Assembly (NCBI GenBank): GCA_964543385.1
Contig: CAZIYE010000001.1
Location: 356,933-420,932 of the forward strand
DNA from: an uncultured Candidatus Saccharibacteria bacterium
Lineage (GTDB): Bacteria; Patescibacteriota; UBA1384; XYA2-FULL-43-10; 1-14-0-10-43-13
Length of the DNA stretch: 64,000 bases
Direction: 5' to 3'
Of the stretch, positions 2,502-64,000 are shown piece by piece (within the stretch, counting starts at the first letter, position 1; each line of letters starts with the position of its first letter). Under the pieces are notes generated by a model. That model was not told where the DNA came from. It ran no database searches and worked only from the letters and a program-made list of their open reading frames with translations. The position numbers and the translations under genes are program-made.

Positions 2502-2954
2502 TTAATTTACACCCAATATTGTACAAACAGATATGCCAGCCGGAGTTTTGACTTTGACTGACTCTCCCTTTTTGTGACCGATCAAAGCGGAACCTATTGG
2601 AGAATCAATAGAAATACGTCCTGAAATTGGATCAGCTTCATCAGTACCAACAATTTGATATTTCATCTTTTCCCCGTCATCTTCAATCTCGACAGTGCAA
2701 CCAACTTGTATGACTTCGCTTTTGCAGTTAGCTTTGATAATCTGGGCATTTTTAATTTTTTGCTCAGTCTCTTGCTCCTTGCCCATCAAGAAAGCTTGCT
2801 CGTTTTTGGCCTCATGGTATTCTGCATTTTCAGAAAGATCACCCATTTCGCGTGCTTCTTTAATCTTAAGGCTTACTTCCTTAAGCTTTATTTTAATCTC
2901 AACTAATTGTTTTTTGAGTTTCTCGAGCCCATCGGCGGTAATGTAGTTGCTCAT
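2502..2954 (-). CDS. greA: transcription elongation factor GreA
   Basis: 150 aa; N-terminal coiled coil and C-terminal FKBP-like domain (…SENAEYHEAKNEQAF…, …VKVKTPAG…). Confidence 0.9.
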   Translation of the reverse strand: MSNYITADGLEKLKKQLVEIKIKLKEVSLKIKEAREMGDLSENAEYHEAKNEQAFLMGKEQETEQKIKNAQIIKANCKSEVIQVGCTVEIEDDGEKMKYQIVGTDEADPISGRISIDSPIGSALIGHKKGESVKVKTPAGISVCTILGVN

Positions 2955-3094
2955 CTTTTACCTTCCTTAGAAAAAATTAAACACGGCTTATAGACGTGTG
3001 TTTCATTCCCTTAATTGCTTACTGTTTTCGCCCAAATCTTCTCAAATTTTGAGATATTTGTCAATAATTACTCAACCAAAAGCAGATTGAGCTT

Positions 3095-5056
3095 CTATTT
3101 TCGGGAAAAATAATAGCTCAATATATCCTTAGCTATAGGTGTAGCGATGGCAAAGCTTCCGCCGCCACCATCAACCAAGACTATTACAGCAATCTCTGGA
3201 TTTTCATAAGGAGCATAGCATTCAAACCATGCATGAGTTTTTTTGTTATTTAAAAACTGCGCTGTACCGGTTTTACCAGCTAGAGTTACCGGTAAATCAT
3301 TAAGATTATGAGCCGAACCAGACGGTTCTGTAATAGCCATTCTCATCCCCTTTGCAACTATTTCCAGAATATCCGGTCTAATAAAATTTTCACTCTCTAC
3401 TCTAGGACCAAATTCCTTGATGACTTTGCCATCAGTCGCAACGATCTTTTTTACTAATTGCGGCTGTAACAGCTTACCTTTATTTGCTATCGCAGCAGTC
3501 ACCCTCAACATTTGCAATGGAGTCACTAGAAGGTCACCTTGGCCTATAGAAACATGATAAGTATCACCAATGTACCAAGGCTCTTTCATAACTTTCTTCT
3601 TCCAAGGCGGATTGGGCAATAGGCCACTCGATTCTCCTGGTAGATCAATACCAGATGGCTGTCCAAGGCCAAATTTTTGCCAATATTCGTTAATTTTATC
3701 AATGCCTATACCTTTGACTCTGTCATAGCCACCGCCAATAGCATAAAAGAAAATATTATTAGATTCTGCAATTGCTCGCGTAACATCAGTTACTCCGTGA
3801 TCCCTATTGTCAGGAAAGATATAATCGCCAATTCTGATATCCGGCGGAGTGTCAAAAGACGTATTTTTCGTGATTACTCCCTCTTGAAGACCAGCTGATG
3901 CAAGAATTATCTTAGAAATTGATCCTGGGGGGTACACGCCTTTAATAGCCCTATTAAACATTGGACGGTTTTTATCTTCAATTAATTTCTTGTAATCATC
4001 ATTGGAAATTCCGGTGGCAAATAGATTATTATCATAGTCAGGAAATGAGACTAGTGATAAAACTCCACCGGTGTTAACGTCCATAACAATTGCCGTACCT
4101 CCACTCACCTCTGATCCAATCAAACGTGTAGCATTATCTATCCCTGCTCTGAGTATCTCCCCAACTTTTTGTTGCAAATCGAAATCAAGATTCAGCACTA
4201 TATCGTTTCCAGGAACAGGCTCTTTGTTTTCCTCTTTAACTAAAACTTTGACCGTGTTACCCTTCGAGTCAACCTCTATCTGTTCAACCCCATTTATACC
4301 CTTAAGAAACTTCTCATACTCATATTCCAAACCCGTTTTCCCGGTCTTGTCAGAGGGGTAATAGCCTGGAGTTTTTTTCATATCTTCTTCGGAAACTATC
4401 CCCGTATAGCCAAGTATATGAGCAAGACCATTGCCAATCTGGTACTCGCGGATCGGGGTCTTGGCTACAAAAATGCCAGGTATACCAGCGATATTCTCCT
4501 CTAACAAAAGCGCATCTTCATGAGAAATATTATTTTTGATTTCTACTCTATCGAGAGATAATAAACGATTTCTCTGCTCCCCGATTGTACCATTGCCTTG
4601 AATTGTTATTCTTAATTCATCAACCGATATCCCAGAAATTTCTGAGACTTTCTTATATACATTTTCTCTATCATCTCTATTCTTCGGTAAATCTGATGGA
4701 TAAACAGCTAGCGCAAATGATGGCCTATTCCTTGCCAGCCAATACCCATTTTTATCGCTGATTAGGCCCCTAGTAGATTCAAGAATCCTCGGCCTTATTC
4801 GATTACCCTCCGCAAGAATCTGATTAGCCTCACCTTCGAAAACTTGCAGAACAAATAATTTAAATATTAATACGCAAAAAATAAAAACTATTAAAACTTT
4901 TAAACTAAAATATGAGTGAGATGTAGTCTTGCTCTCAATCTTTCCGATAGGATCTATTGCTGTGTCTCCATAAGAATAGTTAAGATAGCCTTGCTTTTCA
5001 ACACGGCGCTTTCGACGGTCTCCGGCCAATTTTGAAAAGTTACCAAAAATATCCAT
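3095..5056 (-). CDS. mrdA: penicillin-binding protein 2 (elongasome transpeptidase)
   Basis: 653 aa; N-terminal TM anchor, SxxK (GSISK) and KTG (LAGKTGTAQ) motifs; adjacent to mreBCD. Confidence 0.8.
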   Translation of the reverse strand: MDIFGNFSKLAGDRRKRRVEKQGYLNYSYGDTAIDPIGKIESKTTSHSYFSLKVLIVFIFCVLIFKLFVLQVFEGEANQILAEGNRIRPRILESTRGLISDKNGYWLARNRPSFALAVYPSDLPKNRDDRENVYKKVSEISGISVDELRITIQGNGTIGEQRNRLLSLDRVEIKNNISHEDALLLEENIAGIPGIFVAKTPIREYQIGNGLAHILGYTGIVSEEDMKKTPGYYPSDKTGKTGLEYEYEKFLKGINGVEQIEVDSKGNTVKVLVKEENKEPVPGNDIVLNLDFDLQQKVGEILRAGIDNATRLIGSEVSGGTAIVMDVNTGGVLSLVSFPDYDNNLFATGISNDDYKKLIEDKNRPMFNRAIKGVYPPGSISKIILASAGLQEGVITKNTSFDTPPDIRIGDYIFPDNRDHGVTDVTRAIAESNNIFFYAIGGGYDRVKGIGIDKINEYWQKFGLGQPSGIDLPGESSGLLPNPPWKKKVMKEPWYIGDTYHVSIGQGDLLVTPLQMLRVTAAIANKGKLLQPQLVKKIVATDGKVIKEFGPRVESENFIRPDILEIVAKGMRMAITEPSGSAHNLNDLPVTLAGKTGTAQFLNNKKTHAWFECYAPYENPEIAVIVLVDGGGGSFAIATPIAKDILSYYFSRK

Positions 5057-5553
5057 TATATTTTTATTTCGAAAGATTTAAATCTTTTCCTTATCTTGAG
5101 ATAAAAGTAATATACGATAACTCCTACCATTGTATTAATAAAAACGAACCATGAAAAAGTTAGAAGTCCCTCATTATTCCAAGCTTTACTATAAATTAAT
5201 AATACCCCTTCAAAAATAAAGGTCGCGACCAGAAAGTACAGAGGAGATACAATTAGACTAGGCTCTGGTAAGTAGTATTTTCTGATGTAGCTAATAGCAG
5301 CTGGGATAAGAAAAAAATTAACCATAATTGGAAATAGAGGCAATGAAGAAAAGATGGAGAAGAAAAGAACCAAAGAAAGAGAAACGATTATGTAATCCTT
5401 TTTTGTTTTATCCACAAGAGTGAATATTATCATAAAAATAAATGACGTCAGTATAGTCGCACCGTAAACACCTAAAAAACTAAAAAAAGAAATATCCATG
5501 AAGGACAGAACGAAAGATAAAACTATCAAAAATAAATATTTTATATAAATCAT
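5056..5553 (-). CDS. mreD: rod shape-determining protein MreD (polytopic membrane protein)
   Basis: 165 aa, very hydrophobic with ~5 TM segments; position directly after mreC with a 4-nt overlap. Confidence 0.55.
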   Translation of the reverse strand: MIYIKYLFLIVLSFVLSFMDISFFSFLGVYGATILTSFIFMIIFTLVDKTKKDYIIVSLSLVLFFSIFSSLPLFPIMVNFFLIPAAISYIRKYYLPEPSLIVSPLYFLVATFIFEGVLLIYSKAWNNEGLLTFSWFVFINTMVGVIVYYFYLKIRKRFKSFEIKI

Positions 5554-6335
5554 TTTTTCTCGATAAACACTAATTCCAAGATAGATAAATCTATAATAGG
5601 CTCAACCCCAACGCTTTTAAAGATCCCGGAGGAATTTGACTGTATAGCACCAGCTTTACCAATTAAAATGCCTGCCTTCATTTTGCCGCCCAACCCAGAA
5701 GTGACTATATATTCCCCTACTTTGTAATCAGTATCAGATACTATATTTTCCATAAATAATCCATTTATTCCACCTTTCAATATTCCCTTTGCCCGACAGT
5801 CCTGGAGAGCAACCTGAATAATTGAATCCTTACTTGTTATCAATACTACTTTCGAATGAGTGTCCGAAACCTCTCTTATCTGACCAACTAAAACACCATT
5901 GTAAATAACTGCAGCTCCCTCTACTATGTCGTCCGCCTTCCCCTTGTCAACAATAAAATAATCCAGGAAAGAAGTAGGCTCACGCTCAATAATTTTGGCC
6001 GGAATTAAAGTTCCTTTCTCATTCTGATCCATAAAACCTAGCTCTTTCTTCAGGAGACGGTTTTCTATCTCTAACTCATTGATCCGACTTTTATCTACCT
6101 GAAGACCAATTATTTTGTCGGTAAGGACATTATTTTGATTTTTTAAATCAGATATATGGAATACAAATGAGATTTTTCTTCTCAGAGATTTTCCGAGACT
6201 GGAAAAGACATCCAGTCCGCCATCGGTCACATCGTAAGCTTCTGATCTAACAGAACTTTTGAATGATGGAGAAAAGCCGATCATTATTATCAAAGCGGCT
6301 ATTAGAAAAACAAAAAAGAAAAAGGCTCTTTTCAT
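5550..6335 (-). CDS. mreC: rod shape-determining protein MreC
   Basis: 261 aa; signal-anchor, coiled coil (…NELEIENRLLKKELGF…) then beta domain; follows mreB. Confidence 0.75.
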   Translation of the reverse strand: MKRAFFFFVFLIAALIIMIGFSPSFKSSVRSEAYDVTDGGLDVFSSLGKSLRRKISFVFHISDLKNQNNVLTDKIIGLQVDKSRINELEIENRLLKKELGFMDQNEKGTLIPAKIIEREPTSFLDYFIVDKGKADDIVEGAAVIYNGVLVGQIREVSDTHSKVVLITSKDSIIQVALQDCRAKGILKGGINGLFMENIVSDTDYKVGEYIVTSGLGGKMKAGILIGKAGAIQSNSSGIFKSVGVEPIIDLSILELVFIEKK

Positions 6336-12180: not shown

Positions 12181-12223
12181 AAATAAAACAACTGAGTCGG
12201 TCCGCACAATGGCGAACCGACTC
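12181..12223 (-). terminator. intrinsic terminator of the pyrF-pyrE island operon
   Basis: Minus strand: hairpin gagtcggt-tcgccattgtgcgg-accgactc followed by AGTTGTTTTATTT. Confidence 0.6.
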
Positions 12224-12261
12224 GAGTTTGTCCGTATAGGACTATCACCCCCCTTCGATAT

Positions 12262-13011
12262 TTACGCAGCGTTCATGGCCGCTTCCAGAATATCCCATTC
12301 CAGTTTGGGATGGCGCACAACCTGACCGGCAGCAATCAGCGCTGCGACCGTCGGATCATCCTGATGATATTCTTCTGTCGGCCGGAAAATGTCGCATAGT
12401 ATGGGAATCGGCGGTTTGCCGGGCCGACAAAATTCGTGTGTTTCCGGCCACGCCCGATCAACAGCGCAGATCACATATTGGACGATTCCGCCACCCTCTT
12501 CGATGAGATCTGCCATCTTACCGGTGCTTTTGCCATTATTGAAAACGTCTTCTCCGATGGCATAGCGTTTACCGGGGATAATTGGGTGACGACCTGCTTT
12601 GAACATCGAGGCTTTACGGGTGCTCTCCGTTTCCAGCGCAGTCACTATTTCATCCGGAAACCCGTATTCAATCTGGTCGTAGCCACGGTGCCAGCAGATA
12701 TGCGCGATCGCCTCTGAGAGAGTGAGACCGCCCATTGGTGAACCGTAGATCACCTCAGGAAATCCGTTCGCGTGCAGCAGGCCGAACATCATCTCGGCAA
12801 ACTGTACATTATCCGCCGTCCCTTCGACCATAGCGTAATTGTAGTACGCCGCGCCAACCCAGTGATGGATTTCATCATATTTGGCCGAATACTGTACCAA
12901 CGGCCCAACGATTTTACCATCAGGGGTTGACTTCGATTGATAGGACCCGCGGCGTTGCCGCATAAGCAGCAGCAAGCGATCTTGCTCCTGCTGATTTGGT
13001 GAATATAACAC
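12262..13011 (-). CDS. pyrE: orotate phosphoribosyltransferase-like type I PRTase (high-GC island)
   Basis: PRPP-binding motif GKRYAIGEDVFNNGKSTG aligned with the flexible-loop region (…TESTRKASMFKAG…), as in OPRTases. Likely start is GTG at 13011, preceded by AGGAGG and placed 7 nt after the pyrF TAG stop (translational coupling). The longest ORF in the track (to 13101) overlaps pyrF. Confidence 0.6.
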   Translation of the reverse strand: MLYSPNQQEQDRLLLLMRQRRGSYQSKSTPDGKIVGPLVQYSAKYDEIHHWVGAAYYNYAMVEGTADNVQFAEMMFGLLHANGFPEVIYGSPMGGLTLSEAIAHICWHRGYDQIEYGFPDEIVTALETESTRKASMFKAGRHPIIPGKRYAIGEDVFNNGKSTGKMADLIEEGGGIVQYVICAVDRAWPETHEFCRPGKPPIPILCDIFRPTEEYHQDDPTVAALIAAGQVVRHPKLEWDILEAAMNAA

Positions 13012-13024
13012 GATATCGCCTCCT

Positions 13025-13852
13025 CTAGGCGGCTTCTCTGGCCGCCAGACCTTCTTCGATCTCACGCACAGCGCGCGCCACAACACCAGCGATGTCACCA
13101 TCGGCCGGCTTGGTCAGCGGACGCCCCATTACCAGGAAGTCGGAGCCATCGGCGATTGCGATTGCAGGGGTGACGACCTGCTTCTGGTCCTGAACATCTC
13201 CATCGGCGAAGCGGATGCCCGGCGTCACGACCAGGAAATCCCGACCGCAAGCGGCCTTGATCGCCTTGACATGCTGAGCCGAGGCTACAACACCATCGAG
13301 ACCCGCTTCCTTAGCGAGAAGCGCAAGCTGTACTACTACATACTGCACGGCTGCTTTCTCGTTTTCGAAATTGATCCCGTCGGGGCTCTTGTTCATAAGC
13401 CCGAGCTGAAAGAGGTTCGCGTAGTCGAGGCTCGTCAACACAGTGACGCCGATGACGAGTGGCCGCATTGAGAGGCCAAGCGCCACGGCTTCGGCTTCGG
13501 CGGCTTCACGTGCCGCTTTCATCGCCTCAAGCCCGGAAAGACAGTGCATGTTGATCATGTGCACGCCCAGACGGACAAGAGACTTGACCGCGCCCACCAC
13601 CGTGTTCGGAATGTCGGAAAGCTTACCGTCAAGGAAGACGGCCCCACCGATCTCGATAATGTGGCGAATGACTGAGGAGAACTCGCCGGTCATAATGAGT
13701 TCCAGGCCAACCTTAAAGAACTTGACGCCCTTCGCGGCCATCTGGTCCACCATGGCGATTGCCTTTGCCGGCGAATCGAAGTCCAACGGGATGATGATCA
13801 TCCCTGCTACGCTTGCGCATAGCTGAAGCAACCATTGACGTGTTGTCTTCAC
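13025..13852 (-). CDS. pyrF: orotidine-5'-phosphate decarboxylase (high-GC island)
   Basis: OMPDC signature VFLDGKLSDIPNTV (…D-x-K-x2-D-I-P-N-T…); GTG start with GGAGAAGGAGAAGG SD; strongly G+C-rich compared with flanking genes. Confidence 0.75.
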   Translation of the reverse strand: MKTTRQWLLQLCASVAGMIIIPLDFDSPAKAIAMVDQMAAKGVKFFKVGLELIMTGEFSSVIRHIIEIGGAVFLDGKLSDIPNTVVGAVKSLVRLGVHMINMHCLSGLEAMKAAREAAEAEAVALGLSMRPLVIGVTVLTSLDYANLFQLGLMNKSPDGINFENEKAAVQYVVVQLALLAKEAGLDGVVASAQHVKAIKAACGRDFLVVTPGIRFADGDVQDQKQVVTPAIAIADGSDFLVMGRPLTKPADGDIAGVVARAVREIEEGLAAREAA

Positions 13853-14040
13853 TTAGATTACCTTCTCCTTCTCCATATCATTAGATACGGAACACAGCCC
13901 CGATCGAGTCGGGGTCAAGTTGTCGTTCGGTTGTTAACCGATATGGTACAAAAAAAGCTCCGCTATCTTCGAATCATAGCCAAGCCCTCTTATGGTAGTA
14001 ATATAGAGAAAAACTATATGGAAAGCAACAAATATGGTCC

Positions 14041-14075
14041 TATTAATGCGAAAGCGGTCCCCATACGGGGACCGC
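14041..14075. terminator. hairpin terminator downstream of cdsA, weakly bidirectional
   Basis: Perfect hairpin gcggtcccc-atac-ggggaccgc; minus strand is followed by TTTCGCATT. Confidence 0.45.
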
Positions 14076-14083
14076 TCTGCTAA

Positions 14084-14938
14084 TTAACCGACCAGGCTAA
14101 GGATGATATATGCAATTGGCGCTGCATATATCATACTATCGAGCCTGTCGAGTATCCCTCCATGACCGGGGAGAAGGTCACCGGAATCCTTTTTCTTGAA
14201 ATTCCTTTTCAAAAAAGATTCAACCAGGTCTCCGACCTGACCGAGGAGTCCGATAACTGGCCCAAGAAGGACCAGAAACGGGTTATGGAGAGTCATAGCG
14301 AATGCAATTGCAAATGCCAGTGCTGCCACAAAGCCAGCAACCGAACCACCGATGGTCTTCCCCGCGCTGACATCTGGGCAGAGCTTGGCGCTCTTTATCC
14401 GGCTACCGATCAGGTAAGCCGTAATGTCTATTGCCCAAATCGTAACCAGGAATACTAACAGTAGCACAGGCCCCTTGGACAAACTCAATCCCCCGATTTC
14501 AACATGTCCTGGAATAGACCTGATAGCGACTAAGAAGCTTGGCAGCACACTGACATAGACCGCAAACCTGAGAAGGTTCGTAGGTTCTAGGTAGAACTTT
14601 CTATCGAGAAGTTCTGATCCTAGAAAAATGACAGTGAACACAGCAAGCATACAGAGTGGCGCAGACCACAGACTATCAGCCAAAGCAACAGTGCTTAGCA
14701 TGAAAGTGGCGACAGCCATGAAAATCCATGGCAACTTTACAATTCCTTTTACTTCCATCAAGTCACAGTATTCGCTCGCCATGATGGCGATCAAAACAGC
14801 AACAATAATGGAGAATAACAGGTCGTTGCAAAAAAAGATGGCAACAACTGCTAGGGGTATCCCAATCACAGTTACTACCAATCTTTGCAGGAATTTTTTC
14901 ATATCCCTACCCCCGAAACAGCGTGCCACCCTGGTCAC
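14084..14938 (-). CDS. cdsA: phosphatidate cytidylyltransferase
   Basis: CdsA signature …KRNFKKKDSGDLLPGHGGILDRLDSMIY…; probable true start at 14902 (MKKFLQRL…). Confidence 0.85.
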   Translation of the reverse strand: MTRVARCFGGRDMKKFLQRLVVTVIGIPLAVVAIFFCNDLLFSIIVAVLIAIMASEYCDLMEVKGIVKLPWIFMAVATFMLSTVALADSLWSAPLCMLAVFTVIFLGSELLDRKFYLEPTNLLRFAVYVSVLPSFLVAIRSIPGHVEIGGLSLSKGPVLLLVFLVTIWAIDITAYLIGSRIKSAKLCPDVSAGKTIGGSVAGFVAALAFAIAFAMTLHNPFLVLLGPVIGLLGQVGDLVESFLKRNFKKKDSGDLLPGHGGILDRLDSMIYAAPIAYIILSLVG

Positions 14939-20636: not shown

Positions 20637-20939
20637 ATGAACAGATTGGCCAGATTCTTTTTCCGCCTGTTCGTTCCGGAAAGCAAAGCTTTCAAGAGCT
20701 TTCTACAAACAGTGTCAAACCGTCGATGCCGTCGAGAGATGGCAAAACGCTATCGTCCCAAGCCAGTCACACCTGGAATTATTACCATCATCAGGGAGTC
20801 ATGGCACCTTATGCTAGGGGCAAGTGATTGCCCCAAATGTGAAGGCGTTATGATCCCTCAAATCTTCTTTTCCAGCCCTGAAGACACGACGGGCACAAAA
20901 GGAGGTGAGGTATGCTCCAGATGTCAGCTAAAGCGCTGA
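20637..20939 (+). CDS. small basic zinc-ribbon protein (CPKC…CSRC)
   Basis: 100 aa; GAGGAG SD; two CxxC pairs 24 residues apart; G+C visibly higher than neighbours. Confidence 0.5.
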   Translation: MNRLARFFFRLFVPESKAFKSFLQTVSNRRCRREMAKRYRPKPVTPGIITIIRESWHLMLGASDCPKCEGVMIPQIFFSSPEDTTGTKGGEVCSRCQLKR

Positions 20940-36327: not shown

Positions 36328-37239
36328 ATGGCTTCAACACAAGAATTCAGACGCCGAATCAAATCGGTCAATAATACAAAACAAATTACCAAAGCAATGG
36401 AAATGATCGCCTCTATTAAGATGCAAAAGGCAACTCGTTTTGCTGCAATGGCTAGAAGCTACACCCAAAACGCTTGGAATATGCTTTTAAAGCTTGCAAC
36501 AATTGTACTGCCAGAGGCACATCCCCTATTGAATCCAAGAGAAGTAAGGAGAACAGCGGTAGTCTTATTGACTTCAGATCGTGGACTTTGTGGTTCATAT
36601 AATTCGGAAGTACTGAAAAAATTTGTTGCATTCGAAAAGGAACAATGCGCCTGCAATCAAAAAAGTTGCGGTGAATTTGTAGGAAATTGTGATGTAATTA
36701 CTATCGGTAAAAAGGGCGCGGAATTCACCAAAAGATATAAAACAGGCAAACTAATCGCTGAATTCCCCGGCTTCGAAAATAATATTCAGGCAGAAGATGT
36801 TATGCCTATCTCCAAAATGACAAGCGATGAATACCTAGCCGGCAAATATGACCGAGTAGTAGTTATTTACTCTCATTTTGAATCATCACTAAAACAAATA
36901 CCGGTCGTCAAACAGATTTTACCTATATCAAACGACCATATTGATAAACCAGAAATATGGACACAAACCGATGAGGCTGAGACCGAATACAAATTTGAGC
37001 CAAGCCCAGATGACGTTCTAGAAGGAATACTTAAGCAATTTCTGAGAGTTCAAATATACGGCGCAATCCTAGAGGCCAATGCCTCAGAACATTCTGCCCG
37101 TATGGTAGCAATGAAAAATGCTACTGACAGCGCTGGTGATCTGATAGATGAGCTCAAACTGGTATACAACGCTGTCCGCCAAGGCTCAATCACTCGTGAA
37201 ATTGCTGAGATATCTGGCGCAGCGGAAGCAATGAAGTAG
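36328..37239 (+). CDS. atpG: F1 ATP synthase subunit gamma
   Basis: 303 aa; N-terminal …RRRIKSVNNTKQITKAMEMIASIKMQKA… and C-terminal …NATDSAGDLIDELKLVYNAVRQGSITREIAEI…. Confidence 0.85.
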   Translation: MASTQEFRRRIKSVNNTKQITKAMEMIASIKMQKATRFAAMARSYTQNAWNMLLKLATIVLPEAHPLLNPREVRRTAVVLLTSDRGLCGSYNSEVLKKFVAFEKEQCACNQKSCGEFVGNCDVITIGKKGAEFTKRYKTGKLIAEFPGFENNIQAEDVMPISKMTSDEYLAGKYDRVVVIYSHFESSLKQIPVVKQILPISNDHIDKPEIWTQTDEAETEYKFEPSPDDVLEGILKQFLRVQIYGAILEANASEHSARMVAMKNATDSAGDLIDELKLVYNAVRQGSITREIAEISGAAEAMK

Positions 37240-37447
37240 CACATTTAAAAAAACCAGGCCGCCACTTACTTGATTTCGGCGGCAGCCTGGAGATGGGAAG
37301 GCGGGACCATTCCTCGTCTTCATCGGAGACGAACTCGTGTTCGTCGCTACGGCCGAGGGGCCGTGTCTGTTGCCCTTGCTTCGGGCAATCGGCGGTATCC
37401 ATGCAGGAGCACGGACACAGATCATCATCGCGGCCACAGTCGGCCAT
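37190..37447 (-). CDS. hypothetical Cys-rich small protein (GC-rich cassette antisense between atpG and atpD)
   Basis: AAGGGGG SD 8 nt upstream of ATG at 37447; MADCGRDDDLCPCSCMDTADCPKQ… then acidic stretch; ORF reads through the terminator hairpin into antisense atpG, so its true 3' end is uncertain. Could instead be a non-coding RNA. Confidence 0.3.
   Translation of the reverse strand: MADCGRDDDLCPCSCMDTADCPKQGQQTRPLGRSDEHEFVSDEDEEWSRLPISRLPPKSSKWRPGFFKCATSLLPLRQISQQFHE
37246..37290 (-). terminator. intrinsic terminator on minus strand just after atpG stop
   Basis: Minus strand: ccaggctgccgcc-gaaatcaagtaagt-ggcggcctgg followed by TTTTTTTT. Confidence 0.6.
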
Positions 37448-37471
37448 AGTGGTGTCCCCCTTTTCGAAACG

Positions 37472-37500
37472 TTGTCCGGAAACCGGATGGGAGATACAAT
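37472..37500 (+). promoter_or_regulatory. near-consensus sigma70 promoter restarting transcription before atpD (TTGTCC-17-TACAAT)
   Basis: Hexamers and spacing read directly; followed by AAGGAG SD and the atpD ATG at 37536. Confidence 0.5.
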
Positions 37501-37535
37501 AAAATAAATTAGTTAATATGTCAATAAGGAGATAG

Positions 37536-59318: not shown

Positions 59319-60473
59319 CTAATCAACTCTGTCGATTATGCCGCCGCCGACAACTTCATCGCCATGATAGAAGACAGCACTTTGCCCGGGAGTGACGGCT
59401 CTTTGTGATACATCCAGAATGACCTTGAACTTTCCTTCCTGAATCTCATTGATTTGGCAGGTGACCTCTCTGGCCTTATACCGAATTCTAACCTTTAAAT
59501 CTCCATAGTCTGATCTGGGACCAGTCCAATATGTATTTACAATTTCAAACTCTTTTTTATATAGATCTTCATCAGCGCCGACAATTAGCTCATTTTTGCG
59601 TAAATCAAATCCAATAGCATAAAGAGGCTTCTTATTTTCACCTTTATTCATAATTTTTAATTCTTGATTGACATCCTTACGTTGGCCGATTGTGTAGTTA
59701 ACCAACCCGTTATGAATACCTACTGTAAAACCACTCTTGTCAACAATTTTACCGGATTTAAAATATGACTCGTCTAGATGTCTTTTTAGAAATTCACGAT
59801 AATCATTCCCTGCTACAAAACAAATTTCTTGGCTATCTTTTTTCTTATAAGTAAGCAGACCTTCTTTCTCTGCAATTGCCCTAGTGTCTTCCTTGCTCAT
59901 TTCTGAAAGTGGAAATACAACTTTAGAGAGTTTATCCTGACCAAGCTGATACAGAAAATAAGATTGATCCTTAGCTTTATCAAAGCCCTTAGAGAGATGA
60001 TAAAATTCTTCATCATCTTGGGTTATTTTTGCATAATGTCCAGTCGCAAGCTTATCGCATCCAACTTTTTCCGCAAAATCTAAAAGCCATCCAAACTTTA
60101 TTTTTTGATTGCATAGAATGCATGGATTTGGGGTTCTTAGGTTTTTATATTCATCAATAAAATAATCAACGATCTCTTTTTTAAACACCTTCCGAGCGTC
60201 TACTACATAAAACGTTATTCCTAATTGAGTAGCAACTTTGCGTGCATCCATCAAGGCTCGTTCATCGCAGCAAGCATTCTCCGATGTACCGCAAGGATCG
60301 TGCCAAAGCTTCATAAAAAAGCCGACAACATCATATCCTTGTTGTTTTAGAAGCAACGCTGAAACAGAGGAATCAACTCCTCCGGACATGCCCACCGCAA
60401 CTTTTATTTTCGATTTGTCCAATATAATTCCATTCTGATATAGAACTTGATGATACCCTTGATCTGTTACCAA
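59319..60473 (-). CDS. mnmA: tRNA-specific 2-thiouridylase
   Basis: PP-loop …KIKVAVGMSGGVDSSV…; …CNQKIKFGWLLDFA…; TTG start in track, true start possibly slightly downstream. Confidence 0.85.
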   Translation of the reverse strand: MVTDQGYHQVLYQNGIILDKSKIKVAVGMSGGVDSSVSALLLKQQGYDVVGFFMKLWHDPCGTSENACCDERALMDARKVATQLGITFYVVDARKVFKKEIVDYFIDEYKNLRTPNPCILCNQKIKFGWLLDFAEKVGCDKLATGHYAKITQDDEEFYHLSKGFDKAKDQSYFLYQLGQDKLSKVVFPLSEMSKEDTRAIAEKEGLLTYKKKDSQEICFVAGNDYREFLKRHLDESYFKSGKIVDKSGFTVGIHNGLVNYTIGQRKDVNQELKIMNKGENKKPLYAIGFDLRKNELIVGADEDLYKKEFEIVNTYWTGPRSDYGDLKVRIRYKAREVTCQINEIQEGKFKVILDVSQRAVTPGQSAVFYHGDEVVGGGIIDRVD

Positions 60474-60487
60474 ATAAATGGTATAAA
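60459..60487 (+). promoter_or_regulatory. sigma70-like promoter (TTGATC-17-TATAAA) for the Cys-rich peptide gene
   Basis: Hexamers and 17-nt spacer read directly; overlaps the mnmA start region on the opposite strand. Confidence 0.35.
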
Positions 60488-60502
60488 TATGCTTATCATT
60501 TT

Positions 60503-60528
60503 CGATATCCTAACGGATATCGTTTTTG
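60503..60528 (+). promoter_or_regulatory. leader hairpin plus U-tract (attenuator-like) between the promoter and the SD
   Basis: Perfect 8-bp palindrome cgatatcc-taac-ggatatcg followed by TTTTTGG. Confidence 0.4.
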
Positions 60529-60554
60529 GTAAAACCCCTATTGGAGGATGTTCG

Positions 60555-60722
60555 ATGATTAACCCCTGCCTGCGCGCCCAATTGCGGCGCGACGTCGCCC
60601 GTCGCTGGAAGGCGACCACGGAAGCACTCCGTAACTCTGAATGCCAGAACTGCGTTCTCGCAGACAGCGGATCGTGCGCTCCGGCCAACTGTCCGGGCCA
60701 TCAGGCCCAATCGCGGCACTAG
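60555..60722 (+). CDS. 55-aa Cys-rich peptide (GC-rich cassette)
   Basis: GGAGG SD 7 nt upstream of ATG; MINPCLRAQLRRDVARRWKATTEALRNSECQNCVLADSGSCAPANCPGHQAQSRH (CxxC-x7-C-x4-C at the C-terminus; basic N-terminus). Confidence 0.45.
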   Translation: MINPCLRAQLRRDVARRWKATTEALRNSECQNCVLADSGSCAPANCPGHQAQSRH

Positions 60723-60734
60723 CCGCACTGCGTC

Positions 60735-60770
60735 CCGCCACTCCCCTCAAAGGAGTGGCGGTTCTTTTTA
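60735..60770 (+). terminator. strong intrinsic terminator of the peptide gene, abutting the folD stop
   Basis: ccgccactcc-cctcaaa-ggagtggcgg followed by TTCTTTTTA. Confidence 0.7.
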
Positions 60771-63494: not shown

Positions 63495-63510
63495 ATATGT
63501 TTATGGTTAT

Positions 63511-63557
63511 GTAATATAACAAGTAATATAACAAGTAATATAACAAGTAATATAACA
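63511..63557. repeat. 12-nt tandem repeat GTAATATAACAA x3.9
   Basis: Read directly; begins 17 nt upstream of the Phd/YefM-like gene start. On the minus strand it is TTGTTATATTAC x4 and contains -35-like TTGTTA hexamers. Confidence 0.9.
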
Positions 63558-63602
63558 TTTAAGGAATTGCCTGTCAATTAGTAAACATAAAACGAAAACG
63601 AG

Positions 63603-63630
63603 CCCTGGTACATCATGTACACAGGGCCCG
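63603..63630 (-). terminator. intrinsic terminator of the truncated high-GC gene
   Basis: Minus strand: ccctgtgtaca-tga-tgtac(c)aggg followed by CTCGTTTTCGTTTTATG. Confidence 0.6.
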
Positions 63631-63661
63631 CTCGGATTTTTGACCTGAGCGCGAACGCCCG

Positions 63662-64000
63662 GGTCATCTCCCACTTCCTTTGTTCAGCTCCACCAGCGGT
63701 CCGATGACCACCTTCTGGAGCATGATCCTACGATTCTCGGGGTTCCGCAGCCTCCAGCTGTCTCCTCCCAGGAATCGGCGCTGCTCAGCAGCAGACAGCC
63801 CCTTCCAGCGTGGATCCTTCGCCTGAGCGGCGATCTCAGCATCGCTGTTTGGGACGCCGCACTCGAGTAGCACCTTGTTCTCGATCGTGTTATAACCACC
63901 GAGAACATCGAAGGTCTTTGCTAAAGTGCAGTTGACTGGCTTGCCGAACCGTTTCCGGCCATAGCCCTGATCAAGCAGAACATTCTCGATCAGTCCGGCC
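63662..64000 (-). CDS. C-terminal part of a high-GC gene of unknown function (continues beyond window end)
   Basis: Open frame from the window edge: …AGLIENVLLDQGYGRKRFGKPVNCTLAKTFDVLGGYNTIENKVLLECGVPNSDAEIAAQAKDPRWKGLSAAEQRRFLGGDSWRLRNPENRRIMLQKVVIGPLVELNKGSGR*; strongly G+C-rich. Confidence 0.4.

Follow-up and report, generated by a model that had tools for sequence, protein, structure and literature searches.

The window analysed here, a stretch of 64,000 nucleotides from a genome of ~0.67 Mb, contains the isc genes, folD, mnmA, an ABC transporter and recG in one neighbourhood. The products of the genes next to the region of interest were confirmed by the precomputed Pfam annotation as MnmA, FolD, IscU (NifU_N) and IscS (Aminotran_5), in agreement with the first-pass annotation. 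Between folD and mnmA, the opposite strand carries what appears to be a stand-alone expression unit with its own promoter-like site, Shine-Dalgarno sequence (SD), ORF and terminator. This had been proposed before, and only slight corrections of the coordinates were necessary. The following features were assigned:

60423..60767, plus strand: inserted cassette, corresponding to the entire folD-mnmA spacer and missing in the relatives L031, L034 and L035
60459-60771, plus strand: expression unit from promoter to terminator (corrected coordinates)
60459..60487, plus strand: promoter-like site TTGATC-17 nt-TATAAA, read from the sequence
60459-60464, plus strand: -35 element TTGATC, with the 17-nt spacer downstream
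60482-60487, plus strand: -10 element TATAAA, with TGG just 5' of it (a motif like an extended -10)
60494..60531, plus strand: whole leader stem-loop, consisting of lower stem, upper stem and U-tract
60494-60498 / 60527-60531, plus strand: lower stem of the leader, 5 bp
60503-60522, plus strand: leader hairpin CGATATCC-TAAC-GGATATCG, directly followed by TTTTT and terminator-like according to the scan
60503-60510 / 60515-60522, plus strand: upper stem of the leader, 8 bp
60523-60527, plus strand: U-tract of the leader
60543-60547, plus strand: SD GGAGG, 7 nt 5' of the ATG at 60555
60555..60722, plus strand: ORF for a basic Cys4 mini-protein of 55 aa, MINPCLRAQLRRDVARRWKATTEALRNSECQNCVLADSGSCAPANCPGHQAQSRH, with the conserved residues C30, C33, C41 and C46
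60735..60771, plus strand: predicted intrinsic terminator, a 10-bp stem with 8 G-C pairs and a 7-nt loop, followed by TTCTTTTTAT
60735-60761, plus strand: stem-loop of the terminator, the T-tract TTCTTTTTAT running over the folD stop codon (60768-60770)

Tryptic peptides of the 55-aa protein are WKATTEALR and NSECQNCVLADSGSCAPANCPGHQAQSR, and the stretch CGTCGCTGG..GCGACCAC of the cassette can be used as a k-mer query.

The 8-bp leader palindrome with its U-tract, the GGAGG sequence and the 55-aa ORF are present as claimed previously, and the 10-bp GC-rich terminator that overlaps the folD stop codon was recovered by the terminator scan. It is predicted for the plus strand only, since no U-tract follows the stem on the minus strand. 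The promoter-like site is absent from the output of a strict consensus scan, which is explained by a -10 element without the final T. The G + C content was calculated as 0.66 for the ORF and terminator, 0.33 for the promoter and leader, 0.37 for folD and 0.39 for the whole window, and it doubles abruptly at the start codon, from 0.33 to 0.66. The ORF is thus, as noted in the first-pass annotation, much richer in G + C than its surroundings (0.66 compared to 0.37-0.38 in the flanking genes), and the body of the cassette has 64-66% in a genome with 39%. That this GC-rich segment might be an assembly artefact is excluded by a Logan contig (SRA run), which is 100% identical across 11.3 kb, stems from an independent assembly and was seen in four samples.

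The folD-mnmA junction was compared among the relatives. In L031, L034 and L035, only 0-10 nt lie between folD and mnmA. In L002 two and in L032 five unrelated small genes are located on the opposite strand between them, and the unrelated small genes found at this site include membrane proteins. In L020 the promoter and leader known from the window precede another cargo, which is AT-rich; this cargo, also found in L033, encodes a Lys/Arg-rich protein. The folD genes of L020, where the site is occupied, and L031, where it is empty, are 99.8% identical, and one species is polymorphic, its junction being empty in one contig and filled in another with an AT-rich cargo that follows the promoter and leader of the window. 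From this comparison of sequences, the folD-mnmA spacer is an insertion hotspot whose content varies between lineages and strains. As the site is empty or differently filled in relatives, the neighbourhood provides no functional information here, and the case calls for caution in general, since gene neighbourhood tells nothing at insertion hotspots. For mnmA itself there are three start candidates, TTG at 60473, TTG at 60422 and the ATG of GMSGG, the last of which is apparently used by an NCBI-derived entry of 356 aa. The longest form is disfavoured by an indel between the window and the relative L030 that is not a multiple of three and lies upstream of the conserved NGI residues.

L030 carries an orthologous unit with ~76% nucleotide identity, which encodes a protein of 50 aa. 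The complete folD-mnmA spacer shows ~80% nucleotide identity between the window and L030, compared to 81% for folD and 71% for mnmA. The window, L030 and L020 agree in the two hexamers of the promoter-like site TTGATC-17-TATAAA, which had been described in the window, and in their 17-nt spacing, but not in the letters of the spacer. Such conservation may in part be due to mnmA on the opposite strand. The leader hairpin including its lower stem folds at -15.9 kcal/mol (z = -3.3) and is near-invariant in the three genomes, the differences being a single change from C-G to U-G in L030 and a mismatch in L020. The SD region TTGGAGGA is invariant in all three, and SD and ATG are kept. The stem-loop, previously considered as an attenuator, could equally be a 5' stabilizing element or a palindromic operator common to the divergent mnmA promoter. 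Within the window it occurs as a single copy. A Fur, Zur or IscR box in the palindrome was considered and dropped, as the match to the Fur box, judged by eye, was an unconvincing ~12/19. Likewise, an assignment of the spacer to repeats or MITEs was rejected, with no second copy in the window and a unique leader. No similarity of the cassette to the other GC-rich islands of the window was detected.

The occurrence of one promoter and leader with two different cargos might be explained by a portable "expression socket" of promoter, leader hairpin, SD and ATG at the folD-mnmA junction, behind which small ORFs are exchanged; of two near-identical strains, one may have the whole unit and the other lack it. 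We regard this explanation as unlikely. If it were true, the socket would represent a recombinase-independent cassette exchange in genome-reduced CPR epibionts and would let them try out and express micro-genes of foreign, possibly host, origin. A comparable antisense GC-rich unit is located between atpG and atpD (37240-37535), which would be a second instance of such a socket.

The coding status of the ORF was analysed by codon comparison with L030, the statistics resulting from one pairwise comparison because just two full-length orthologues exist (n = 2). Mismatches are distributed over the three codon positions as 6/10/23 (chi-square p = 0.002), and the codon differences comprise 13 synonymous and 15 non-synonymous ones. 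With a dS of 1.02, the resulting dN/dS is 0.17, compared to 0.15 for mnmA and to a range of 0.07-0.15 at a dS of 0.8-2.3 for the flanking genes. Both indels (12 and 3 nt) are in frame, and of the six frames, the annotated one alone is open in both genomes with a low dN/dS. The window and L030 both have an intact start, stop, SD and terminator, and the terminator stem is identical. Judged from these codon-level signatures, the ORF is maintained by purifying selection and codes for a real protein, the latter as the first-pass annotation had assumed. By exact look-up, the 55-aa peptide is not on record and the gene was therefore never called; it would be a bona fide micro-gene overlooked by gene callers, missing from the Logan gene calls as well as from the protein databases.

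As an alternative, the GC-rich segment could be a structured small non-coding RNA, or one with dual function, in which the ORF is incidental because GC-rich DNA seldom contains stop codons. The whole unit does fold better than shuffled sequences on the plus strand (z = -5.3), comes with a promoter-like site and a terminator of its own, and keeps a high G + C content at third codon positions (GC3) in both lineages at a dS of ~1. However, the z-score is due to the leader hairpin and the terminator, whereas the structure of the ORF body is unexceptional (z = -1.56 in the window and +0.21 in L030), and the minus strand folds just as well, which is predicted by composition alone. Four compensatory pairs between the window and L030 were found by RNAalifold in local hairpins inside the mRNA, which may reflect some constraint at the RNA level. 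The search against Rfam gave no match at the gathering thresholds, and in a permissive search (E up to 10) the best match reached 18.6 bits compared to a gathering score of 40, was driven by the terminator and is at chance level. Given, in addition, the codon-periodic substitutions, the indels in multiples of three, the low dN/dS in a single frame and the conserved SD and ATG, we consider this alternative very unlikely. The codon comparison of two genomes is thus sufficient to tell a GC-rich non-coding RNA from a small protein.

The encoded protein was examined for conserved residues and structure. Both orthologues have Cys at the positions of C30, C33, C41 and C46, with a synonymous change from TGC to TGT in three of the four codons, while the N-terminal Cys5 is not conserved in L030. 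In the window the cluster reads C-x2-C-x7-C-x4-C-P, in L030 C-x2-C-x3-C-x4-C-P. Of the CxxC-x7-C-x4-C cluster described earlier, the four Cys residues are conserved and the x7 spacing is not; a rigid metal site would not usually vary from x7 to x3 between its second and third Cys. The indels fall in the Cys-rich C-terminal part, and the 26 N-terminal residues are better conserved than this part. A structure prediction had been suggested, and AlphaFold2 with the single sequence predicts a long helix (residues 4-36, mean pLDDT 77) followed by the Cys-rich tail at low confidence. The four conserved potential ligands are arranged as two pairs, as in zinc-knuckle and zinc-ribbon proteins. None of the zinc-finger family models matches the protein of the window or that of L030 at threshold: in Pfam there was no match for the former and an E-value of 0.09 below threshold for the latter against the PR zinc-knuckle model, and the best NCBIfam match, an RCKP rubredoxin-like model, was below the cutoff at E = 0.057. 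The product is best read as an orphan basic Cys4 protein that probably binds Zn.

The peptide could also be the precursor of a ribosomally synthesized and modified peptide (RiPP) of the ranthipeptide/SCIFF, sactipeptide or lanthipeptide type, with a helical leader and a Cys-rich core. SCIFF and ranthipeptide precursors are similar to it in size and Cys content, and the better conservation of its N-terminal 26 residues would fit a leader. However, SCIFF cores are rich in Gly and Thr, unlike the Cys-rich part found here. The neighbours in both genomes are mnmA and folD, no partner gene accompanies the insertion hotspot in either of them, and the genome has a size of only ~0.67 Mb. The 64-kb window contains no real gene with the CxxxCxxC motif of radical-SAM enzymes, the one ORF with this motif being a spurious antisense frame. 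The profile searches recommended in the first-pass annotation for zinc-ribbons, RiPP precursors and small Fe-S proteins gave no model above threshold in Pfam or NCBIfam. The RiPP interpretation, raised there, finds no support in these results and is given a very low probability.

Even less probable is a function as an Fe-S or persulfide accessory factor working with IscS, IscU or MnmA, for which the location between the isc genes and mnmA and the four conserved Cys residues ending in C-P, recalling the CxxCxxCxxxCP motif of ferredoxins, could be adduced. The inconstant spacing (x2, x3/x7, x4) differs from this motif, and the gene lies antisense to the operon, has a foreign codon usage and occurs in just two genomes. 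Relatives with the same isc, folD and mnmA genes have an empty site or unrelated small proteins. The link to sulfur trafficking through mnmA, iscS and iscU, which had been thought conceivable, is not supported, the spacer being a variable insertion and folD and mnmA standing side by side in L031, L034 and L035.

Homologues were searched in several databases. A word-indexed search of 5.8 billion proteins revealed none, and an exhaustive phmmer search of 1.84 billion representatives resulted in three matches, all to long tandem-repeat proteins, which were judged as spurious because their scores add up 5-17 weak stretches. Nothing significant was found in Pfam, NCBIfam, PHROGs, PADLOC or the PDB sequences, the best matches being sub-threshold in PHROGs (E = 0.026) and no relative in the PDB (E = 0.19). 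Phage and plasmid databases, searched with DNA and tblastn, gave chance matches or none. No relatives were detected in JGI metagenomes scanned with the leader pattern and back-translated peptide patterns or in a scan of viral contigs.

The codon usage of the ORF deviates from that of the genome in both lineages. The GC3 is 0.73 in the window and 0.62 in L030 compared to 0.34 for the genome, and in both orthologues 7/7 Arg codons are CGN, whereas 56% of the Arg codons in the genome are AGR. Foreign composition, the absence of homologues and the location in a variable spacer would also suit a non-functional remnant of horizontally gained GC-rich DNA with a chance open frame, which can hardly be reconciled with an ORF kept since the divergence of the window and L030 (dS ~1) under a dN/dS similar to that of mnmA, with SD, start, stop and terminator intact in both genomes and Cys residues kept through synonymous codon changes.

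The interpretation that we prefer, with moderate confidence, is a laterally acquired, moron-like mini-cassette for the orphan basic Cys4 protein with its probable Zn site. A small autonomous plus-strand cassette would have been inserted antisense into the iscS-iscU-folD-mnmA operon of a CPR/Saccharibacteria-like bacterium. Its promoter would give rise to a short mRNA, the 5' leader of which consists of the highly conserved stem-loop and the U-tract, the strong SD and the ATG would allow translation of a protein of 50-55 residues, and the GC-rich intrinsic terminator would end transcription at the stop codon of folD. The protein is predicted to comprise an Arg-rich amphipathic helix at the N-terminus (residues ~4-29), followed by the C-x2-C-x3/7-C-x4-C-P cluster, in which the four Cys may form a knuckle-like site for a single metal ion, most likely Zn. 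The basic helix may touch nucleic acid or another protein, and both properties together would point to a small protein with a regulatory or binding role and not to an enzyme. The module of ORF and terminator (66% GC, all-CGN Arg) would have been gained horizontally from a presumably GC-rich donor before the split of the window and L030 and would by now be partly ameliorated, at a site that appears to serve as a hotspot with different small genes or none in relatives. While the present evidence describes an orphan small protein in two genomes with a biochemical function deduced from sequence features, a metal-binding regulator from a GC-rich donor would bear on the uptake and domestication of foreign DNA in ultra-small epibiotic bacteria.

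The cassette was compared with several known systems. With leader-terminator attenuators it shares a hairpin and U5 between the region of the transcription start and the SD, kept in three genomes. No alternative antiterminator, leader peptide or ligand-binding domain was identified in the leader; in the folds, no mutually exclusive antiterminator or sensing element is evident, just the lower stem that extends the same hairpin. SCIFF and ranthipeptide precursors are likewise ~45-55 aa long and combine a conserved N-terminal part with a Cys-rich C-terminal one, whereas the cassette peptide has no nearby radical-SAM maturase and no HMM match. An integron gene cassette does not apply, with no integrase among the neighbours and the conserved palindrome located 5' and not 3' of the ORF. 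With small Cys4 zinc-binding proteins the cassette protein shares a comparable size, the basic character and a CxxC pair followed by a second pair spaced x4. Among classical short zinc motifs, the zinc knuckle is CX2CX4HX4C and ribosomal protein L36 has CX2CX12CX4H. The cassette protein differs by its short and variable inter-pair spacing (x3 or x7), and it has no family model at threshold and no PDB relative.

Phage morons are a concept of Hendrix and Juhala. They are characterized by insertion between adjacent genes, an own promoter and/or terminator, a different G + C content and hotspots in which one place is taken by different morons (PMC2920897). In contrast to them, the cassette is located in a housekeeping operon of a bacterial chromosome and not in a phage or prophage, phage genes are not adjacent, and it has no significant match in PHROGs or the phage databases. 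A promoter and leader common to different cargos (window and L030 versus L020) also lie outside the moron definition. In common with morons, the cassette sits between two genes that abut in relatives, is predicted to have its own promoter-like site and intrinsic terminator, deviates by ~27 points in G + C content from the flanking genes, and is replaced by different cargo at the same site in different genomes.

Pfam domains precomputed for a public contig of identical sequence give the minus-strand gene order IscS, IscU, FolD, MnmA. A spacer of 345 bp separates the folD stop (60768-60770) from the start of mnmA, for which TTG 60422 is the most likely codon. All parts of the plus-strand unit described in the first-pass annotation, namely a promoter, a leader hairpin with U-tract, a GGAGG Shine-Dalgarno (SD) site, a 55-aa ORF and a terminator over the folD stop, were found again in this spacer:

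60459-60464 (+), -35 element TTGATC, from the sequence
60482-60487 (+), -10 element TATAAA, preceded by TGG, at 17-nt spacing from the -35 element
60503-60522 (+), leader stem-loop, upper stem a perfect 8-bp palindrome (CGATATCC/GGATATCG), then TTTTT
60543-60547 (+), SD site GGAGG
60555-60722 (+), 55-codon ORF, ATG at 60555, TAG at 60720-60722
60735-60761 (+), terminator, 10-bp stem (8 GC), then TTCTTTTTAT

The T-tract of the terminator extends across the folD stop. In a consensus scan both the leader hairpin and the 3′ hairpin were scored as terminator-like; the promoter TTGATC-17-TATAAA is absent from the scan's list because its -10 element lacks the final T. The window is AT-rich (39% GC), and the GC content is 0.33 for promoter and leader, 0.66 for ORF and terminator, 0.37 for folD and 0.38 for mnmA, which agrees with the earlier remark that the ORF is GC-richer than its surroundings. 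The step from 0.33 to 0.66 lies exactly at the start codon. An assembly artefact is ruled out, since a Logan contig from a separate SRA-run assembly, present in 4 samples, matches the window at 100% identity across 11.3 kb, the spacer among them.

Relatives were found by MnmA and FolD searches and retrieval of the encoding contigs. The only genome from these searches holding an orthologous Cys4 unit at the matching folD-mnmA position is the Logan contig L030 (85% FolD and 68% MnmA amino acid identity, ~76% nucleotide identity overall), with nucleotide identities of ~80% in the spacer, 81% in folD and 71% in mnmA. Its unit comprises identical -35 and -10 elements with 17-nt spacing, the hairpin, TTGGAGGA, an ATG and a 50-codon ORF (MISPYLRAQLRRFVARRWEATTAALRKPKCTNCNGSCSPANCPDHGQSQR), and the terminator stem is identical to that of the window. 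The mnmA start itself is ambiguous between 60422 and 60473 (minus strand), and the longest ORF, from TTG 60473, would overlap the plus-strand -35 element. An indel relative to L030, not a multiple of three and located upstream of the conserved NGI residues of mnmA, argues for a predicted start at or after TTG 60422; in the NCBI-derived MnmA entry P0004 (356 aa) the start apparently lies 11 codons further in.

Structured RNA genes in AT-rich genomes usually look like this, a GC-rich island that ends in a terminator, and for this reason such a gene was tested for first. Using Rfam at gathering thresholds, nothing except eight tRNAs was detected in the whole window, and permissive thresholds gave chance-level matches only, aligned to the terminator. 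On either strand the full unit folds better than shuffled sequences (z = -5.3 and -5.6), the source of this signal being the leader hairpin and the terminator; for the ORF body alone, z is -1.56 (window) and +0.21 (L030 orthologue). RNAalifold reported four compensatory pairs in local mRNA hairpins, a minor caveat as two sequences are too few to evaluate. The question was decided by the codon-level conservation in L030, and an RNA gene is improbable.

The codon comparison covered 51 aligned codons of this single pair, with 6, 10 and 23 mismatches at codon positions 1, 2 and 3, respectively (chi-square p = 0.002). The differing codons are 13 synonymous and 15 non-synonymous, and both indels in the ORF (2/2) are multiples of three. 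By the Nei-Gojobori method, dN is 0.18 and dS 1.02, giving a dN/dS of 0.17, and like-for-like comparison of the flanking genes gave 0.07 for folD, 0.10 for iscU and 0.15 for mnmA (dS from 0.8 to >2); thus, the small ORF evolves like its neighbours. The annotated frame is the only one of the six that is open in the window and in L030 and has a low dN/dS; in L030 a stop interrupts the antisense frame with common third positions. Four cysteines (C30, C33, C41 and C46) are invariant, three of them via TGC-to-TGT changes, and Cys5 of the window protein is Tyr in L030. From this sequence comparison it is concluded that 60555-60722 is a real protein-coding gene, as the first-pass annotation had proposed.

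Residues 4-29 form an Arg-rich amphipathic helix with seven Arg and a hydrophobic face of L6, L10, V14, W18, T21/T22 and L25; single-sequence AlphaFold2 predicted a helix at residues 4-36 (mean pLDDT 77) and a low-confidence tail. The tail of the window protein reads C-x2-C-x7-C-x4-C-P-x-H, that of the L030 protein C-x2-C-x3-C-x4-C-P-x-H. A word-indexed search of 5.8 billion proteins found no relative, nor did searches of Pfam, NCBIfam, PHROGs, PADLOC and PDB sequences, tblastn against phages and plasmids, or scans of JGI metagenomes and IMG/VR with back-translated patterns. An exhaustive phmmer search of 1.84 billion representatives gave three matches and no true relative; these were spurious, being long tandem-repeat proteins whose scores are sums of many weak stretches. 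The absence from protein databases is explained by the gene being uncalled on both Logan contigs, the window-identical one and L030. The window and L030 proteins are the two known members of a new, orphan family of small proteins. As to the suggested metal binding, the Cys cluster is conserved and profile searches matched no family; from these sequence features the protein is inferred to be a single Zn-type Cys4 knuckle on a basic helix that would act as a small binding or regulatory protein.

The ORF has foreign codon usage: GC3 reaches 0.73 in the window ORF and 0.62 in the L030 ORF against 0.34 in the genome, all Arg codons (7/7) are CGN in both ORFs whereas 56% of genomic Arg codons are AGR, and the CAI-like score lies below that of every open frame of at least 100 codons in the window. 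The intermediate GC3 and a dS of ~1 since the lineage split would fit a gene from a very GC-rich donor under amelioration. No segment-like DNA was found in phages or plasmids.

In three relatives (L031, L034 and L035) folD and mnmA abut with a gap of 0-10 nt. Two more distant ones carry opposite-strand genes at the junction: L002 (MnmA 58%) two unrelated genes for small two-helix membrane proteins at 5290-5991, each with its own SD and terminator, and L032 (MnmA 60%) five small genes at 2653-4000. Every one of these cargos exceeds its flanks in GC content, and none gave a significant family match; among them are two-helix membrane proteins and a protein of 65 aa with the motif CSRC-x6-CHIC. 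Furthermore, L020, L031 and L033 represent one species (95-99.8% nucleotide identity), yet differ at the junction:

L031, 1040-1060, empty
L020, 3084-3262, promoter, leader hairpin, SD and ATGAT as in the window, then a different AT-rich ORF (MMRKKRILKSSL...)
L033, 997-1022, AT-rich non-mnmA sequence straight after the folD stop

With empty, occupied and differently filled junctions, gain, loss and renewed filling of the spacer thus take place over short times. The left flank is 99.8% identical among these single-species contigs and the right flank 96.5%, a hint of recombination. The AT-rich ORF of L020 continues into a scaffold gap. The GC step at the ATG and the promoter and leader in common with the other cargo of L020 suggest modular replacement of the ORF-terminator part, on which no firm statement is made because of that gap. 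A portable promoter and leader 'socket' exchanging small-ORF cargo in CPR genomes, the tiny-genome group of the source, is considered quite improbable. Proximity to iscS, iscU and mnmA, from which a sulfur or Fe-S role had been proposed, is uninformative on the function of the gene; given the variable junction, this hypothesis loses its main support, and the sulfur or Fe-S role counts as unsupported.

From the -10 element through the U-tract (47 nt), only 2-4 positions differ among three genomes that are otherwise ~76% identical. The leader stem is conserved: one C-G pair has become U-G in L030, and L020 has a single mismatch inside the stem. A 5-bp lower stem (UAUCA/UGRUA) is conserved too. 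The hairpin could equally be a 5′ stabilising stem-loop, a palindromic operator common with a divergent mnmA promoter, or, from the hairpin and U5, an attenuator, for which no antiterminator or sensor was found.

Other GC-rich or Cys-rich elements were observed in the window. A second GC-rich (~60%) unit lies antisense within the operon between atpG and atpD:

37240-37535 (-), TTGACA-17-TATTGT, SD AAGGGGGA, ATG 37447

Its Cys/Asp-rich ORF (MADCGRDDDLCPCSCMDTADCPK...) has no Pfam, PHROG or PADLOC match and no stop ahead of a minus-strand terminator (~37252-37290, with T7); the stop is at 37190, within atpG antisense. A 2.3-kb block of 55-65% GC (12192-14475), with a gene for OMP decarboxylase (PF00215, E = 2e-42) next to an ORF of 279 aa without Pfam match, is as atypical in codon usage as the Cys4 ORF and is probably another horizontal acquisition. 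A 100-aa ORF at 20637-20939 (+; GC 0.49) with an SD-like site encodes a zinc-ribbon-like CPKC...CSRC knuckle pair. The GC-rich (~60%) window end (63589-64000) encodes the C-terminus of a minus-strand protein without Pfam match. Before it lies a short, AT-rich sequence repeated in tandem about four times (GTAATATAACAA; 63507-63555), within which the independent Logan contig breaks (63540).

Compared with known systems, the unit was judged not to be an integron cassette. In size and layout the protein is similar to precursors of SCIFF-type RiPPs, but the RiPP reading put forward earlier found no support, with no maturase in the 64-kb window and no match to RiPP precursor HMMs. Likeness to small zinc proteins of the Cys4 type was also noted, without a match to any family model. 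Phage morons are autonomous units that differ in composition from their surroundings and separate genes which adjoin in related genomes, at hotspots with varied units (PMC2920897). The folD-mnmA unit likewise has its own promoter, gene and terminator and a deviant composition, and it too separates genes that adjoin in relatives, at a site with different units, but it lies outside a phage or prophage and so lacks the defining feature; it is moron-like, not a moron. The mini-cassette with the Cys4 gene, variable and acquired laterally, belongs to a known kind and is cleanly documented here.
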